Assembly: GCA_963668025.2 (NCBI GenBank)
Contig: CAXXTH010000010.1
Span: forward strand, 448,001 to 512,000
Origin: Candidatus Hydrogenedentota bacterium
GTDB taxonomy: Bacteria > Hydrogenedentota > Hydrogenedentia > Hydrogenedentales > SLHB01
Length of the DNA: 64,000 nucleotides
Direction of reading: 5' to 3'
The translations under genes and the position numbers were made by a program. Shown piece after piece: positions 5,390 to 56,000 of this stretch (the first letter of the stretch is position 1; every line of letters starts with the position of its first letter). Below the pieces are notes generated by a model. That model saw only the letters and a list, made by a program, of their open reading frames with translations, was not told where the DNA came from and made no database searches.

Positions 5390-5633
5390 GTAGGGTGGGG
5401 CTTGCCCTACCGTTAATGGTTTTCAATCCTACTGGTGGGGCAAGCCCCACCCTACCCTTTTCCCGTGGCATGGGCGTCCCCATGCGCATGGCCAGGACGG
5501 CCATGTCACGACATTTAGAAAAAAGAGGAAAGAGAAGATAAAAGCGGCGGCAAGCTGCCACTATCCATATAAATTATCTGTTATCCTTGCGTGAAGAGGG
5601 GAACAAGGTGTGGGATCGGCGCTCTCGCCGGTT
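5390..5633. repeat. Cluster of four REP-like palindrome families
   Basis: GTAGGGTGGGGCTTGCCC/GGGGCAAGCCCCACCCTAC pair (5390-5455); CGTGGCATGGGCGTCC..GGACGGCCATGTCACG (5464-5510); AAAGCGGCGGCAAGCTGCC (5541-5567); GTGGGATCGGCGCTCTCGCCGGT (5610-5633). Three of these recur elsewhere in the window. Confidence 0.8.
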
Positions 5634-7458: not shown

Positions 7459-7514
7459 ATGAGATCCCGTAGCATGGGCGTCCCGCCCATGCGCATGGCC
7501 GGGACGGCCATGCC
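7459..7514. repeat. GTAG-type REP doublet cut at the IS boundary
   Basis: CCCGTAGCATGGGCGTCCCGCCCATG..GGGACGGCCATGCC; same family at 5464, 9737 and 55924. Confidence 0.8.
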
Positions 7515-9441: not shown

Positions 9442-9449
9442 AAAACCGG

Positions 9450-9586
9450 TAACAATTTAGCCAAGTGGTGAAGAATGACCGGCGAGGGCGTCGGTCATCA
9501 GATGGAAAATGATGTATCAATGCCGGTGCAAGGTAATAAGCAAGACTGCCAAATATCAAATGCTACTTCAGTAGGCTAAAGTGTTA
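9450..9586. mobile_element. MITE-like element, copy 1 (TA-bounded)
   Basis: Ends TAACAATTTAGCC and GGCTAAAGTGTTA (12/13 inverted). Alignable end to end with the reverse complement of 30579-30765. Confidence 0.8.
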
Positions 9587-9736
9587 GCAAAACCGCATCA
9601 TATTTTAGTGTAGTTCGTACTACTGTCTGGCAAAACGTTGTTTGCTTTCGATGATACCTAATCGAAATCCAGTCTCATCACATAGTTACATGTTCCGGCT
9701 CTTTACATGGCGTTTTGCATGAATTTTACTCATCAT

Positions 9737-9768
9737 ATGGGCGAGACGCCCATGCTACGGGAGATCAT
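9737..9768. repeat. REP arm, inverted partner of 7459-7490
   Basis: 32 bp with 3 mismatches to the reverse complement of 7459-7490. Confidence 0.8.
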
Positions 9769-18239: not shown

Positions 18240-19240
18240 CCACGCCGCTTGACAGTATGGATATAGTGGCGGAAGTCATCCGCACCCATTACGGATTCGC
18301 CCGGGTGGGCCGGCCGGAGCCGTTGCCCGGAGCCCATCAGCGGCGGCACCAGAAATTAGTGGCCGCTACCTCGGAAGGCCCATTCCTGGCGAAAACATAC
18401 GTGCGCGATCCTTATGTTTTGGATGATCTCCGTTTTCAGCATCGCTTGTCGGACCATCTTTCCCGCCATGGGCTGCCGATAGCGCACATCCAGCCCGCCC
18501 GCAATGGCAAGCGCATTGTCGAGGTCGATGACTGGGCGCTGGAATTGCAGGTGTTTGTACAGGGCGAACCCATGCGCGTCACCCCCGGTACGCTGGCGAT
18601 TGCGGGCGGCGCTCTCGGGCGCTTTCATGAGGTTTGCCGGGATCTGCCCCGCCCGCCGCGTGATGCCCGTTTATGGCGCTTCAGCGAGGTGCCCCGTGGC
18701 TTGTTCGCGCAATTCTTCAACAGCGCATGCGAGGCGGGCGGCGGGCCTGGCGCGATAGAACAATGCAATCAGGTCGCCTTGTTTCTGCATAGTGCGGCAA
18801 AAGCCTTGTCCATCGAAAACCGCGACCGATTCGAGACGGGCCTCATCCACGGCGATTGGCATGGCGGCAATATGTTGTTTCATGACGGACAGCTCGCGGC
18901 GATTTTAGATCTGGAATTCGCCGGTGACGGCTGTTTTCTAGAGGATTTAGCATACGCCGTATCGAGCCTTTGCATCCGCACCTCCACGGACGCCGCGAAA
19001 CTCACCCAGCGCACCGAGCAGTTCCTTCACGCGTATGAAGTCCACCGCCGCTTATCTTTCTATGAACGGGCCGCTTTATTCTACGCCGCCGGCGTCAAGC
19101 AAGTCGCTTCCATCTCTTACCAGCTTCCCTTGCTAGAGGGGCGTTTGGCGGGCCATAATGCCGCCGAATGGCTCGAACGCCTCGCACTCCAATGCGAATG
19201 GATGCATGAACGGGCGCGTGAAATACGTCCCGGAACGTAA
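18236..19240 (+). CDS. APH/homoserine kinase type II-like phosphotransferase
   Basis: HGDWHGGN and ILDLE motifs; ATGA overlap with the acylase gene. Confidence 0.8.
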   Translation: MTTPLDSMDIVAEVIRTHYGFARVGRPEPLPGAHQRRHQKLVAATSEGPFLAKTYVRDPYVLDDLRFQHRLSDHLSRHGLPIAHIQPARNGKRIVEVDDWALELQVFVQGEPMRVTPGTLAIAGGALGRFHEVCRDLPRPPRDARLWRFSEVPRGLFAQFFNSACEAGGGPGAIEQCNQVALFLHSAAKALSIENRDRFETGLIHGDWHGGNMLFHDGQLAAILDLEFAGDGCFLEDLAYAVSSLCIRTSTDAAKLTQRTEQFLHAYEVHRRLSFYERAALFYAAGVKQVASISYQLPLLEGRLAGHNAAEWLERLALQCEWMHERAREIRPGT

Positions 19241-19319
19241 CAGCGCGGAGACAAGCGGCTTCACCGGATTGGACAGGCATGCGCCAAGCCTGTGTCGAGG
19301 TGTTATCCAGGCCTGCAAA

Positions 19320-20063
19320 TCAGCCAATGGCGAACAAGCTGTCAATGCATTTCGGAACCGAAGGCATTTCGTCCCAGGTCCGTCCATCGAGAAGACGGCC
19401 GTTCTTCTTTTTGTTGACGCCTCCCCATTGCTTGAAAAAGAACGGAACCTTTGACTGGCGGCAATGGTCGCGAATGCCTGCGGCCCATTCCTTGCGCATG
19501 GGCCGGGCGCTTGGACCGGACTCACCGCCGACAATCGCCCAATCCACGCCCCGCAAGTCTAATGTATCCACCGGACCGAGCAGAGGCTCGAAAGAAACAA
19601 ATTTGATATGGGCGTTTGTCTTGCGCAGATGGTCGATACGAAAGGCGTAATCCTGGCTTTCCACGCTCACACCCATCCAAATATGCGGCTCCCACGGAAT
19701 GGCCGGATTAAGCTCCTCCAGCCGCTCAGCGCGTTTCGTAAGCACCTGGTATTGATGCCAATTGGCCTTGCGCATGATATCGAAAACGCGAAAGATGAAA
19801 TCCACCGGAACCGATTGGTGGAAAAGGTCGCTCATGGAGTTCACGAAAATCGTCTGCGGCTTCTTCCACGTCAAAGGCAGTTCGAGGGCGTGCTCGTGGA
19901 CGGTTATGTCAAAGCCATTGGCATAATTTGCCTGTCCCATGGCCTTCAGCCGCTTGGCCATGCGTTCGGCATAACAATGCTTGCAGCCCGGACTGATCTT
20001 CGTACAGCCCGTCACCGGATTCCAGGTGGATTCCGTCCATTCTATCGCGGAATTATTGGCCAT
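19320..20063 (-). CDS. DUF5131 (phage Gp37/Gp68) three-Cys radical-SAM-like protein
   Basis: [49 protein letters not shown]. Confidence 0.9.
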
Positions 20064-20335
20064 TATGAATCTCGTCTTTCACGGTGTTTGCGGAATACTT
20101 GCCCTGCTATTTTTGCGGCAGTCGCATTCTGTGATGCGAAGAACAAGTAATAAACAATAGCACCTTTAGAGTTCCTCATCGGCATAGGTTCAGGTACATA
20201 CTTGAAACCCGCCACCTCTCGCAACCGTTCGCGAAACGCGTTGACGATAACTTCATTGTCTACTTTTTCCTCACCAAATAGTAAACCTTGTCCCGAACGC
20301 GTGACGTTCCGCTATGACTCATCACCCCAGAAGGT
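20063..20335 (-). pseudogene. tcmP: 3' remnant of three-Cys-motif partner protein (TcmP-like)
   Basis: Hand translation: FWGDES*RN...FRERLREVAGFKYVPEPMPMRNSKGAIVYYLFFASQN...; TAATG coupling to the DUF5131 gene; internal TAG at 20312-20314; 5' part absent. Confidence 0.7.
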
Positions 20336-20458
20336 TTTAGCAAATGAAGAAGAGTATATTATGTACGTGCCGTTTGTTCTATGCGAGCGGGCTTGCGCCG
20401 GGGGCCGGGGAGGGCGGAATGCAACGGAGGCTCGCCTGTTGTATAGGCGTAATGCTTA

Positions 20459-20532
20459 TCTCTGTGTTACACTGTGTCTCAGCGGCGAATGAGCCGGAGT
20501 GTTCACCACAGAGACACAGAGGGGCACAGAGA
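20459..20532. repeat. Periodic (CACAGAGNN-type) hairpin, left boundary of cassette
   Basis: 31-bp arms at 20459-20489 and 20502-20532 with a 12-nt loop. Confidence 0.8.
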
Positions 20533-20566
20533 AGAGGACGATGAGAGTAAATGGAGGATAGGTGAG

Positions 20567-21540
20567 ATGGCTGGTAACTCGATTGAAAAAGAATGCCCAG
20601 TTTGTTCTGCTGAGAAAGCAGCAGTAACGGAATATAATGTCACTACAAATATTGTGATTGTCCGAATTGTGGTATATACCAGATCTCGAAGACCGCCCTA
20701 AGTGAACTTAGTGGTCTAGGACCAGATCAACGGGCCGTGCTCAGCCATTGCATTTGGATGGTGCAAAAAACAATGACTGTGCCTGTAATAGATACTCAAT
20801 ATATAGAGTACGCACGAGAAAACGAGCTTCCTTCGTCGGCCGAGCAACTCGATCTGTATGTTCTGTATTTGGGTGATTGTCAAAAACACCCATCTAGTAG
20901 TCTAATAATACATACAACACAATACCTGCGTGCCAAAATAGGGGCTGTCACTGTACAAAACGTAAGCGCGATTGCCCAATGGGCGGGGGATCTTGGTATA
21001 GCAGAGATCTCCCCCGGTGACAAGACACTCAAGTTCGGCGCGACTCTAGTTTACAGGGGCTGGCAGCGCTACGAGGAACTTAAACGCGGCAAGGCCTCCG
21101 GGACGACGGCGTTTCTGGCCATGGCGTTTAAAGATAGTGAAGATCAGGACTTCATCAAGGAGCACTTCACCAAAGCGGTGGCGGAAACGGGCTTTCGGTT
21201 GCGGGATATTCGTGAAGACCCGAAGGCGGGATTGATCGACAACCACATTCGTGTGGCGATTCGTATGGCGCGTTTCGTGATCGCGGATCTGACGCACAGG
21301 AACAAGGGCGCTTACTGGGAAGCTGGCTACGCCGAAGGACTAGGAAAGCCGGTTATTTACAGTTGCAGGAGGGATGTTTTTGAGAGTGAGCATCCCGATA
21401 TAAGGCCCCATTTCGACACCAATCACTGTCAAACCGTGGTGTGGGATCCTAAGGAACCAGAAAAGGCTGTTGCTCAGTTGGCCGATACGATCCGGGCGAC
21501 GCTGCCTTTCGATGCGAAGATGCCCAAGGAGGATGTCTGA
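20567..21540 (+). CDS. Zn-ribbon + nucleoside 2-deoxyribosyltransferase/TIR-like domain protein (frameshift near 20640)
   Basis: GGAGG RBS, MAGNSIEKECPVC; after a frame change YCDCPNCG continues into the 267-aa ORF; C-terminal AFLAMAF..FVIADLT..YWEAGYAEGLGKPVI. Confidence 0.7.
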
Positions 21541-21594
21541 TCTCTGTGTTCCTCTGTGTCTCTGTGGTGAGAGATCCGGTTCATTGGCGCCGAG
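21541..21594. repeat. Inverted copy of the 20478-20532 hairpin segment, right boundary of cassette
   Basis: TCTCTGTGTTCCTCTGTGTCTCTGTGGTGAGAGATCCGGTTCATTGGCGCCGAG starts at the base after the stop codon. Confidence 0.8.
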
Positions 21595-21826
21595 TAAGGC
21601 GGGCTACTCCGTCTGCTCCTGTCCTGCCGCCATTTCCTGTCTTTGCCGATGTCCAGCCGCGCCAAGGACAGGCCCGCCGTGGCCGCTGCCCCATCATCAA
21701 ATACTCCCACTAGATGACGCCATGTGGCCAGTGCATACTGCCAAATAAAGCATGCATGTATCTCCCTGTCCTTTGAAACGGCCTACCCACTATTTTCGTG
21801 GATTGCGCGGAGTCTGCGGCTCCATT

Positions 21827-25184
<3,358 letters not shown>

Positions 25185-30534: not shown

Positions 30535-30576
30535 GGCCGGAGGCGATACGGAAACGCCTCCGGCCTTCAAATTTTT
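30535..30576 (+). terminator. Intrinsic terminator
   Basis: GGCCGGAGGCG / CGCCTCCGGCC stem followed by a T-rich tract. Confidence 0.75.
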
Positions 30577-30578
30577 CG

Positions 30579-30765
30579 TAACATTTTAGACGGCTTAAGT
30601 AGCCCCTGATATTTGGCAGCCTTGTTTATTACCTTGCGCCGGTATTGATACATCATTTCGCACCTGCCGACCGACGAGGGCGTCGGTCCCACACTTTTTT
30701 TTAGCAAGTCATTTGTGGGACCGGCGCCCTCGCCGGTCATTTTTCACCACTCGGCTAAGGTGTTA
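30579..30765. mobile_element. MITE-like element, copy 2, with intact internal REP doublet
   Basis: Ends TAACATTTTAGACG and CGGCTAAGGTGTTA; internal REP arms at 30669-30692 and 30715-30738; homologous to 9450-9586. Confidence 0.8.
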
Positions 30766-30774
30766 CCAATTTTT

Positions 30775-32997: not shown

Positions 32998-35900
32998 ATG
33001 GCGACGTGGGTGATTGCCCCGATGATTAGTATTATGAAATTCCTGCGCGGAAATGCCTCTGGCGAAGAAGGCCAGACTCCGCTGCATCATGCGGCCAGCG
33101 GGGGGCGCGCCGAAGAGGCCGCCCATCTACTTGCCCGCCGCGCCAATTGCAATGCGCAGGACCGCTCGGGCCGCACGCCTCTTCATCTCGCCGCCGCTCG
33201 AGGCGATGAAAACATAGCCCGCATCCTGCTTGATGCGGGCTCCAATGCGAATGTACAAGACGCCAAAGGCCGCGGCCCCCTTCATGAAGCCACTTTTGGG
33301 GGCCATGGCGAAACCGTACGGCTTCTCCTCGAACGTGGCGCTCTGCCGGATATATGTGATGCAAGCGGGTACACACCTCTCTACGTAGCCGCCAGTTTAG
33401 GCCATCGCGGCATTCTTTCCTTGCTCATCGAAAAAGGCGCCAATGTGAACCGGCGCGACGCCGATGGGTTTACGGCATTGCACGGAGCCGCCGATAAAGG
33501 GTCCGTGGATATTCTCGCGGAGTTATTGGACGCGGGGGCCGACATCGAAAACGCGGACCGGACCGGCATGACCGCGCTGGCCTGGGCGGCACACAGCGGC
33601 CATGGCCCCGCCGTGCGTTTGCTGCTCGAAAAAGGCGCGCAAGCCAGCTCCGTGGACCGGGAAGGCGCTGCTCCGCTCCATCATGCCGCCTCGGAAGGGC
33701 ATCTTGATGTAATCCGTATTTTGTTCGAATATGGTGCTCTTCCAAATGCAGCCATGAAAAATGGCAAAACCGCCCTATTCATCGCCGCATGCAACAGCAA
33801 CGTAGAGGCCGCCGCTTTGTTGCTGGATGCGGGTGCCTCTCCCGATTTGCTCGATGAAAACCATCGTTCTCCGTTATATATGGCCGCCCGAAATGGCCAC
33901 GCCGCCATGGCCCAATTGTTGCTCGAAAAAGGCGCACGTGAAAGCATCGAGGACAAAAATGGATGGAGCCCCCTGTACATCGCCGCTAAAAACGGCCATT
34001 CGCCCTGTGTGGAACTGCTGATCAAGCGGGGTTTCGGCTCCTTGTATACAGCCGCCTCACAGGGCAACCGCGAAGTCCTTGCTTTGTTGCTCGATAAAGG
34101 CATGGACATCAATGTGCGGAGCGAACAAGGATGCACCCCTCTTCATATGGCGGCGTTTGAGGGGCATATGGAGGCTGCGGCGCTTCTACTGGGATTGGGC
34201 GCATCACTAAACGCTGAAGACAATGAAGGACGCCGCCCCCTTCATTTGGCTGCCTTGGCCGGCCGCACCAATATCGTCGCCCTTTTTGAAGAACACAATG
34301 TGGATGTGAACGCCCGCGATCCGCACGGCCGCACGGCTCTTCATAATGCTGCGGCGGAAGGCCATATAGAAGCCGCTGAACTCCTGCTCGAACGGGGTGC
34401 GAATCTCGATGCCCGCGATGAAGAATCGCGCACGCCCCTTCATTACGCCATCGAAGCGGAGCAGCTCGAATTCGCCGGTTTTTTGCTTCAGCGCGGCGCG
34501 GACGCCAACGCCAAGGACCGGCATGGGTGGAGCCCGTTATTTCAGGAAGCATATGCTGGGCGCGCCGCTTCCGTGCGCCTGCTGCTCGAAGGCAAGACGG
34601 ATCCCAATACACGCAACCACGATGCGTGTTCCGCGTTGCATGTCGCCGCCGCCCATGGGCATGACGATGTAGTAAAACTGCTCTTGGACAACGAAGCAGA
34701 CATCGAAATCAAGGATCGCAACGGCCATACTCCCCTGCATATCCAAGCAGAGATTGGAAGCACCGGAATGGCCGCCTTGTTGCTGGAACGGGGCGCTGAT
34801 CCCAATTGCCGCAACAACGAAGGGCATACGCCCCTGCATACCGCAGCCAGCGAAGGGCGCGCCAGCGTGGCCCGGCAGCTTCTCGAATCAGGCGCGGAAG
34901 CTAACGCCCGCGCCACGGATTCCTTCACGCCCCTCCACCTCGCCGCAATGAATGACTCCTTAGAAGCGGCCGCCCTGCTGATTCGTAATCAAGCGGAAAT
35001 GGAGCCGCGCGACGCCAATGGCCGTTCCCCGCTTTTCTTAGCCGCAGCCAATGGGCGCGCGGATATGGCGCGCATGTTGCTCGAGCTTGGAGCCCAGGCC
35101 AATACGAAAGACAGCAATGGCACCTCGCCGCTCCACCTCGCCGCCGCCAGGGGCGATGCCGGTATCGCGGCTATTTTGCTCGAGGCGGGCGCATCCGCCG
35201 ATGACCACGACGAAACCGGGCTGTCGCCGTTGCACCATGCCGCGAACAACGGCCAATTAGAGGTGATGGCCCTCCTGCTTCGTGCAGGTGCGGCTCCGAG
35301 CGCCGTGGACCCCGCCGGGCGCACGCTGCTCTATGCCGCCGCGCGCAGCGGAAATACGGCGGTAGTGGATTTGCTGCTGGCGCAGGGGCTTGATATCAAC
35401 AGGACCGGCCCGCAAGGCGCGACGGCGCTGCTCGACGCCGTAGCGGAAAGCCAGGCTGCCGCTGCGGCCGTGTTGCTGGAAAGAGGCGCGCAAGTAGACG
35501 CCCGCGATGTGGATGGCGCGACGGCCCTCTGCGTGGCGGCCCGGACGGGATGCGATACGCTCGCGTCGTTGCTGCTGGCGCATGGCGCGGACGGCGCCAC
35601 CATGGACCAATCAAAACGTACGCCGCTGCATATCGCGGCGGCGCTGGGGCATGCCGCCGTAGTGCGCGTCCTGCTCGAACACGGTTTTGGCCCGGACTTC
35701 CCAGGCCCGCAGGGCGCTACGCCCTTGCATATCGCCGCCCAAACCGGCGACGCCGCCATCATGGAGTTGCTTCTCGCCGCAGGCGCGGACCCGTATGCGC
35801 ATGATGAGCAGGGCGAAACTCCCCTCCATGCCGCCGCACGCCAAACCCAGCACGAATCCCTGCGCTTGCTGCTCAAGCATGGCGCGGACGCCAACAGGCC

Positions 35901-37084
35901 CGGCGATGATGGGCTGCCGTTCTTTTATGAAATCGCCCAGGAAGGCTTCACGGAAGCAGCGAAGCTGCTGATACGCCTTGGAGCGGATCCGAATATACGC
36001 CTTCCCGATGGCTCCACCTTGCTCGCATACGCCATCCGCCATCAGCAAACCGGCGCGACCCAATTTCTCCTCGAAAACGGCGCGGATCCAAATGAGCCAG
36101 ACGCCGCGGGCTTGTCCCCCTCTGCATCTGGCGGCCATGCAAGGCCTGCGCGAGATTGCCGGGCTCCTAAAACAATATGGCGCTAATCTCCACGCCACCG
36201 GCGGCGCAGGTTATACGCCCCTTCACTTCGCCGCACAGAGCGGCCATTTCGGCGTCGTCGAGATCTTGTGCGCCGATGATTCGGACACCAATGTGCGCAA
36301 CGCCGAAGGGCGGACGCCTCTGCATGAAGCCGTGCGCCGCTGCGACCGGGAAGCCGTGGCCTTCCTTTGCGCCCATGGGGCCGATTTGAACACCCGAAAT
36401 CTGGATGGCGGCACGCCGCTCCATGAAGCGGTTTGCCTGGGCCACGTGGAGCTGGCGGAGCAACTGTGCCGCGCGGGAGCCACGGTGGACGCCCGCGATA
36501 ATACGCAGCGGACGCCTCTCATTGAAGCCGCCAAGCAGAATAATATCGCCATACTCGAAGTGCTATGCGCATATGGGGCCGACGTAAACGCCTGTGACGG
36601 CAATGGCAGGACTCCATTACACGAAGCCGCCCGGGGAGGCTCGCAGTCCAGCGCGCTTTTTCTACTCGAACATGGCGCACACCTGAACGCCGCCGACCGG
36701 AATGGGTGGACCCCGCTGCATATTGCGTCATTCGAAGCCCATATGGATGTCGCCGTTCTCTTCTTATCGCATGGCCCAAATGTAAACGCCATGTCCAGCG
36801 ACAGCCGCACTCCGCTGGCGATAGCCGCGGGCAGAGGCCATATTAAACTCATGCGGCTGCTTCTATCGGCTGGCGCTAAAATAAATATGCATGGCCCCGA
36901 CGGATGGACCGCCCTTCATTGGGCGGCGAAAAATGGCTACGCGCAGGCTGCGCTGTTGCTGCTTGCCAACGGTGCGGACCCAATGGCCCGGGGCTCCGAT
37001 GGATATACGGCGGAAACGCGCGCGGCGAAAGAAGGGCACGAGGGCCTCGCGCGCCAGTTACAAAAATTCCAAGAAACCGCCTAA
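32998..37084 (+). CDS. Large ankyrin-repeat protein (about 40 repeats), split by a +1 frameshift near 36120
   Basis: Continuous G-TPLH-AA/LL-GA repeats in ORFs 32974-36186 and 35978-37084; removing one C from TTGTCCCCCTCTG restores LSPLHLAA. Confidence 0.85.
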
Positions 37085-52814: not shown

Positions 52815-52866
52815 GCTGGAACACCTTCCCTATCCAATGGAGCCATTAGCTTCTTCGTGATAAAGC

Positions 52867-53247
52867 GTCCGGATCTTTCACCACGAGGGCTGATTCATTA
52901 CTGGTAATACTTCAGCGGACTGAAACAAGAGCTTTTTTTTTAGACATGATTAACAAGATGGACAAGATTGAACAAGAACGCCAAGATTCTTTATAGGTAA
53001 AAAACAATCCATGAAGTGTCCAGGCGCGTTTTTTATAGCAAAATTGCCATCAAAAATCTTGTTTCATCTTGTAAATCATGTCTAAAAAAATCCTCCATCA
53101 TCGGCGGTTTGTCATGTATTCACGGTTAAAAAAAACGCCCCGATGCTCTTACTTCAGATGGCCAAAGCACTATCATTATTGGTATTCTGTTCTAGTGCGC
53201 TCATCTTCTCCGTGGCTCCCCGTGTCCCCGTGGTAAAAAATCGGGAC
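52867..53247. repeat. Triple-nested inverted repeat structure
   Basis: Outer pair 52867-52888/53226-53247, middle pair 52905-52932/53145-53172, inner pair 52934-52969/53055-53090. Confidence 0.7.
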
Positions 53248-53248
53248 A

Positions 53249-55923: not shown

Positions 55924-56000
55924 TCCCGTAGCATGGGCGTCCCGCCCATGTAGCTTTGGCTCTAGCACGTGCATCATGGGCGGGACGCCCATGTACGGAA
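55924..56000. repeat. GTAG-type REP doublet
   Basis: CCCGTAGCATGGGCGTCCCGCCCATG ... CATGGGCGGGACGCCCATGTACGG. Confidence 0.85.

Follow-up and report, generated by a model that had tools for sequence, protein, structure and literature searches.

The stretch of DNA analyzed here, referred to as the window, covers C10:448001-512000 (64,000 nucleotides) of a 6.15-Mb genome in 24 contigs. Positions given without a contig are those of the window. A frameshifted gene is present that is bracketed by a hairpin with 31-nt arms (20459-20532) and by a matching arm (21541-21588). Its neighbors are a DUF5131 gene (PF07505, E = 3e-104) and a GH2 beta-galactosidase gene. The features of this locus, and of a second site in the window, are as follows.

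20459..20489, plus strand: outer, degenerate arm of the left tail-to-tail hairpin, with 5 mismatches in 30 against the right arm
20490..20501: hairpin loop, with CCGG at 20494-20497
20502..20532, minus strand: inner arm, TTCACCAC and then CACAGAG three times, with 34 nt between its head and the start codon
20553..20557, plus strand: GGAGG ribosome-binding motif, 9 nt before the ATG at 20567
20567..20647, plus strand: first reading frame of the gene, with the first zinc knuckle CPVC
20647..21540, plus strand: second reading frame, with the second knuckle CPNCG, a helical middle and an NDT/DNPH1-like C-terminal domain
21541..21588, plus strand: right arm, CTCTGTG in three copies ahead of GTGGTGA; its tail includes CCGG (21576-21579)
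52863..52890, minus strand: weak, truncated arm of the second site (nhmmer E = 0.21)
52935..53090: nested palindromic unit with ACATGAT/ACAAGAT words; arms of 26 nt, 96% complementary
53206..53248, plus strand: CCCCGTG-type arm of the second site (nhmmer E = 1.2e-6)

The left hairpin is formed by arms of 31 nt each (20459-20489 and 20502-20532), 77% complementary and separated by a 12-nt loop. Its fold was calculated at -40.9 kcal/mol (z = -5.9), a value that none of 200 shuffled sequences reached. The right arm is unremarkable when folded alone (z = -1.3). Across the gene, 20485-20532 and 21541-21588 are 83% complementary over 48 nt. The 15-mer CACAGAGACACAGAG has exactly two matches in the 64-kb window, 20507-20521 on the plus strand and 21552-21566 on the minus strand; shuffled sequences gave a mean of 0.02 matches, and two matches were reached in 0 of 100. 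The initial annotation, which described a gene between inverted repeats with a 31-bp-arm hairpin on the left, is thus confirmed by the repeat comparison and by the fold. It also had the right copy begin directly after the gene, and indeed the stop codon occupies 21538-21540 and the right arm starts at the very next base, 21541. The 9-bp period that it gave for the arms was not recovered. Each arm repeats a single 7-base word at least three times, the copies 8-11 bp apart, with words starting at 20507, 20515, and 20526 on the left and at 21542, 21553, and 21561 on the right, so that the spacing is 8 and 11.

As had been noted from the letters, no transposase or integrase is present inside or beside the arms, and the R''/R' core sites of attC are missing at the arm ends. 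The reported absence of a target duplication holds for a short one; there is, on the other hand, a direct repeat of 43 nt with 79% identity (20455-20497 and 21537-21579), which places a plus-strand arm on either side of the block made of inner arm and gene. An Rfam search of 19000-23000 returned only chance-level matches to miRNA models. A scan for promoters and terminators found no sites above shuffle expectation.

A frame change of one base, at an A-run, divides the gene in two. Because the second frame is open from about 20644, the change can be placed within about 20640-20652. Among the sequencing runs listed as matching, none of them RNA, one contains the entire window with no difference and may be where this DNA came from; another contains identical pieces of it, and its cover leaves out 20542-21009. 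The only paralogue in the genome (C10:210950-211945) is intact, lies 257 kb away, and is 58% identical in protein. The protein consists of a zinc ribbon, a helical middle, and a C-terminal domain of the DNPH1/NDT/MilB N-glycosidase fold. A structure model made of the paralogue reached pLDDT 81.7, and Foldseek matched its C-terminal domain to DNPH1, MilB/BcmB, NDT, and the SARM1 TIR (E = 4.5e-4 to 4.5e-3; TM-score by target 0.52-0.68). The PADLOC TIR-effector model PDLC00733 matched the paralogue at E = 1.1e-7 and the window copy at E = 3.8e-4, and Pfam TIR gave no match for the gene product. These results uphold the NDT/TIR-like fold first proposed for the product. The C-terminal fold is common to DNPH1 (Rcl), the MilB/BcmB CMP N-glycosidases, and the nucleoside 2-deoxyribosyltransferases. 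The product differs from them in its added zinc ribbon and helical middle, and its Pfam PF05014 (Nuc_deoxyrib_tr) scores of 22.6 and 23.6 bits fall under the gathering cut-off of 28.8. The domain is nucleoside or nucleotide N-glycosidase-like.

The C-terminal motif is G-x-Y-W-E-A-G-Y-A-E-G-L-G-K-P-V with an invariant Glu. In an alignment of 11 homologues the invariant residues include the block G-A-Y-x-E-A-G-x-A-E-G-x-G-x-P-V. The homologues are patchy in distribution and were found in 19 of the 133 genomes of the order. Their neighbors vary at the 12 metagenome loci that were viewed, and at six of these the gene adjoins a gene for an HNH nuclease, methylase, helicase, resolvase, Fic protein, or DUF559 protein. 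A putative role in phage defense is plausible. The enclosed gene belongs to an accessory single-gene module, and this copy is probably in decay.

At the second site, the initial annotation had the same arm family recurring at 52867 and at 53206-53247 around unrelated DNA. The right-hand arm is indeed strong, and the left-hand one is weak. The enclosed DNA is itself another phased-heptamer palindrome of a different word type (52935-52960 and 53065-53090). A composite of this kind, an ACAAGAT-type palindrome in a second inverted repeat in CACNRRG-type arms, recurs four times in the genome (52863-53248 of the window, C10:145321-145861, C10:1346792-1347216, and C18:220281-220650). Since the outer arms of these copies differ in word type, loops may be preferred insertion sites. 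Other repeats in the window are separate from the arms. A GC-rich palindromic repeat with the core CATGGGCGTCCCGCCCATG is found at 5479-5510, 7459-7513, 9737-9768, and 55924-55950. A long inverted repeat joins 9442-9592 and 30573-30773, 21 kb apart, in which 116 nt are 79% complementary and 55 nt are 87% complementary. Many direct repeats of 26-48 nt at multiples of 99 bp (99-1188) occupy 33400-37000; they look like a long repeat-protein gene, guessed by eye to be ankyrin-like.

The arms are a real, non-random family that is wider than the bracketed locus. The arm pattern was defined as three phased CYYNGTG words followed by (G/T)T(A/G), as in GTGGTGA. The tabulation of this motif that had been proposed for the genome and its relatives gave 104 strict arms in the genome, against none once it was reversed, and an nhmmer profile search gave 129 arms at E < 1e-3. 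Sub-families can be told by word: CTCTGTG, CCCCGTG, CTTCGTG, and CTTNGTG. Orientation is ordered. Over the 160 arms at E < 0.05, the arms come as inverted pairs, with 22 tight tail-to-tail hairpins and 46 head-to-head pairs within 3 kb, of which 13 are less than 40 nt apart, 22 are 40-500 nt apart, and 11 are 500-3000 nt apart. Same-direction neighbors within 3 kb amount to only 2 plus-plus and 8 minus-minus pairs. Fewer than 200 nt separate the arrays in 83 of 115 inverted pairs. CCGG lies within 18 nt of the arm tail in 41 of the 104 arms, and 31 of the 104 belong to tail-to-tail hairpins centered on TCCGGA. Three pairs of near-identical units were compared for the ends of the element. In two of them homology continues into neighboring repeats, and in the third it stops with the arms; the units are composite and nested, and the comparison fixed no ends.

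At least seven phased-heptamer word families coexist in the genome, among them CGCAAAG (35 arrays), CACAAAG (26), CACTAAA (24), and ACATGAT (22). At C23:323123-328131 there are three tandem genes for 431-aa proteins, with 80-81% identity to the first copy and no Pfam family, and a tail-to-tail hairpin is present at each of the four junctions. Distant paralogues of this gene elsewhere (40-50% identical) have no arms.

The strict pattern was found in 66 of the 133 genomes of the order, and the backwards-read control was 0 in every genome. Counts range from 0 to 64 per genome across the order, the present genome being highest with 64 strict arms in that survey, and from 0 to 33 within one genus. 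The repeats have multiplied here beyond any other searched genome of the order. Their positions are gene boundaries. A scan of all GTDB species found at least 125 loci, with at least 151 arms, that carry the arm pattern. By record titles, the loci listed belong to Acidobacteriota, Planctomycetota, Chloroflexota, Cyanobacteria, Chlamydiae, Bacteroidota, several proteobacterial classes, and one Methanotrichaceae MAG. Among the GTDB matches listed, 78 of 151 arms use one and the same word three times, there are 22 head-to-head pairs with 6-204 nt between their arms, and CCGG is found in 8 of 151 arm tails. TCCGGA-centered tail-to-tail hairpins and many gene-size loops are features that the present genome adds to the repeat class. 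In a literature search with strings of arm sequence, the matches listed were unrelated primers.

The enzyme was expected to be encoded elsewhere, and a candidate for it is a GxxExxY nuclease. There are 12 PF13366 (GxxExxY) loci. Strict phased arrays lie within 300 nt on both sides of 8 of these and on at least one side of 11; random windows gave 0.2% for both sides and 8.4% for at least one. Random windows served as the control because reversal keeps direct repeats, so that the reversed genome is unfit as a control for phased arrays. For three of the 12 loci the nearest CYYNGTG arm is at most 70 nt away; of random places, only 1.7% have one at 200 nt or less. The PF13366 genes each have their own word: CACTAAA, CACAGAG, ACATGAT/ACAAGAT, CACAAAG, CGCGAAG, CGCGAAT, or CGCAAAG. 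The word of the window arms, CACAGAG, is found in arms on both sides of the nuclease gene at C21:77784-78134 (TIGR04256, E = 2e-42). Elsewhere in the order, 28 of the 29 closest homologues of this gene lie no more than 300 nt from an array, and 19 of the 29 have arrays on both sides.

The suggestion that the enzyme could be an HUH or tyrosine recombinase was not supported. None of 11 Phage_integrase loci lies within about 12 kb of any arm, and none of 13 Y1_Tnp (HUH) loci lies within 12 kb of one. Nine of the Y1_Tnp loci have identical scores, are of the IS200/IS605 type (e.g., C8:17897-18250 and C10:785505-785861), and have no arms near them; they are probably copies of one active insertion sequence. 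In the available part of a PD-(D/E)XK survey, the function of PF13366 is given as "unknown" (PMC3424549). The literature searched held no paper linking PF13366 to repeats.

The best explanation for the locus, held at a probability of roughly 0.6, is that REPIN-like phased-heptamer repeats, which are non-autonomous and tied to a GxxExxY nuclease, flank an accessory gene and have been duplicated with it. An arm consists of CYYNGTG words, three in number and spaced by about one helical turn, and of the GTGGTGA that comes after them, and arms are set in inverted pairs. The repeat class is linked with small GxxExxY genes (PF13366, PD-(D/E)XK) much as REPINs are tied to RAYT genes. The gene and its adjoining arm share ancestry with the paralogous locus, and either the block was duplicated whole or the arms were kept alike afterwards. 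From its linkage to the arms, the nuclease may be what spreads them. Recombination between arms, or the carriage of neighboring DNA, could then copy adjacent genes.

In the available text of Bertels and Rainey (2011, PMC3116915), the REPIN/RAYT system consists of short inverted doublets that form hairpins, with many gene-less extragenic copies. The arms resemble what is described there in their hairpin doublets, their gene-less extragenic copies, and their several sequence groups per genome, each group adjoining its own small enzyme gene flanked by repeats. They differ in that the enzyme is a PD-(D/E)XK GxxExxY protein and not an HUH Y1 transposase, in arms of three phased heptamers whose design recurs across phyla, and in gene-size loops. 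No Y1 gene flanked by the repeats was found (0 of 13 loci within 12 kb). The same arm design can be seen in the "Class 2 predicted global regulator binding sites" of Geobacter metallireducens, which are three tandem TCTCCGTS[Y] repeats in opposite-strand pairs at variable distance, read as putative regulator sites in the part of that 2009 description at hand (PMC2700814). Neither a nuclease link nor mobility appears in that part of the description. Mobile insertion cassettes and MITEs with passenger genes are alike in having inverted ends around genes and no transposase inside. They differ from the present case, in which there is no parent insertion sequence with a classical transposase and no short target duplication; only long arm repeats flank the gene.

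The arms could instead define a true cargo cassette, a unit that is mobilized in trans by the GxxExxY nuclease and carries a single defense-type gene. This seems unlikely, and what speaks for it comes from within the present genome. The paralogue is laid out like the window gene, with a hairpin ahead of its 5' end and one arm after its 3' end, so that both copies are bracketed, and their arms share a private variant. The inner arms of the two copies are reciprocal best matches among the 104 arms, with a score of 41 against 36 or less for all others, and they are identical at 35 of 35 positions beside genes that are 58% identical in protein. Full arm identity beside such diverged genes needs selection, gene conversion, or recent insertion, and not neutral co-duplication. 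A perfect direct repeat of 40 nt, of which 30 nt are unique in the genome, flanks the inner arm and the paralogue (C10:210862-210901 and 212042-212081); it could be an insertion footprint or a local duplication. A 331-aa secreted-protein family has three full-length copies and one fragment, each with an arm on at least one side, and the arms beside three of these (445, 373.3, and 373.6 kb) are mutual best matches. There are 15 gene-size regions flanked by arms. Twelve of these are below the genome's GC of 0.554, and 0 of the 14 distinct proteins scanned is a transposase or recombinase. The gene-size brackets hold mostly low-GC genes, the majority without a Pfam family. Those that are head-to-head number 11 against about 2.5 expected under random orientation, by our own estimate from the pair counts, with about 10 neighbor pairs expected at 500-3000 nt. 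Two bracketed genes are defense-like. One is the window gene and the other, between CCTTGTG-type arms at C17:1301535-1302585, encodes a 266-aa CAP12/PycTIR-type TIR protein (PF10137, E = 6e-37; PADLOC PDC-S35, E = 1e-79). Loop DNA that recurs in another unit was found in 11 of 22 short head-to-head units, which favors the cassette, as bracketed DNA can then be copied with its arms.

Against a cassette is the content of the units. The idea in the initial annotation that single defense genes are moved does not fit a family in which 83 of 115 pairs enclose less than 200 nt and most members are gene-less, and in which housekeeping-type genes, a sulfatase and a PfkB kinase, are bracketed as well. 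Homologues flanked by arms, which a cassette was expected to show, are found inside the genome in the bracketed paralogue and are not found outside it (none of 10 loci in the order, none of 53 metagenome loci). Tandem paralogues that are only 24-29% identical have a hairpin at every junction, so these hairpins were not inherited along with a duplication but came later or have been maintained. At C10:445 kb and C23:323-328 kb, tandem duplication accounts for the direct repeats. No empty site or excision form was seen: the read-contig joints at 20521>21541, 20533>21542, and 20521>21549, with no side longer than 29 letters, derive from other copies of the repeat, and in the two relatives that match both the DUF5131 gene and the lacZ part these lie on different contigs. 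It is likewise doubtful that arms which began as satellites of GxxExxY genes became the ends of passenger-carrying units, with the enclosed genes copied or moved in trans.

A non-mobile role, in which the arms are regulator-binding sites or RNA structures that control or insulate the enclosed gene, is improbable. Words about one helical turn apart and a hairpin 34 nt ahead of the start codon would suit such sites. They do not sit well with copy numbers that vary so widely across the order and within one genus, with arms tied to nuclease genes, with units nested in one another, with enclosed genes that are mutually unrelated, or with promoter- and terminator-like sites at shuffle expectation. 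Least probable by far is that the arms are integron-like attC sites, or sites of an HUH or tyrosine recombinase. Integron cassettes are single promoter-less genes separated by imperfect palindromes, attC sites have the R''/R' core consensus RYYYAAC/GTTRRRY, and their size range admits a hairpin of about 74 nt, as is found here. Single genes between imperfect palindromes are a likeness to the present locus, and there are hairpin-gene-hairpin arrays at C18:136-140 kb and C23:323-328 kb. However, the palindromes here are symmetric and near-perfect, lack the GTTRRRY core, have no Rfam match, and are scattered across the genome, and no integrase lies beside an array; nor were integrase or Y1 loci found near arms.

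REPIN-like repeats tied to a nuclease, as preferred here, belong to a repeat class that spans many phyla and that has one mention in the literature searched, as "putative regulator sites" in the available portion of that source (PMC2700814). They offer a candidate DNA substrate for the uncharacterized nuclease family PF13366. The genome is a test bed for this, with the most arms of 133 genomes, at least seven word types that each have their own nuclease gene, and brackets around ordinary genes. If the brackets are immobile, the locus remains a clear example of selfish repeats that have settled around accessory genes. If they can move what they enclose, they would provide a new way of shuffling defense genes. 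Nuclease-driven cassettes would then shuffle accessory and defense genes such as the NDT-like gene, the PDC-S35 TIR gene, and families of secreted and membrane proteins.
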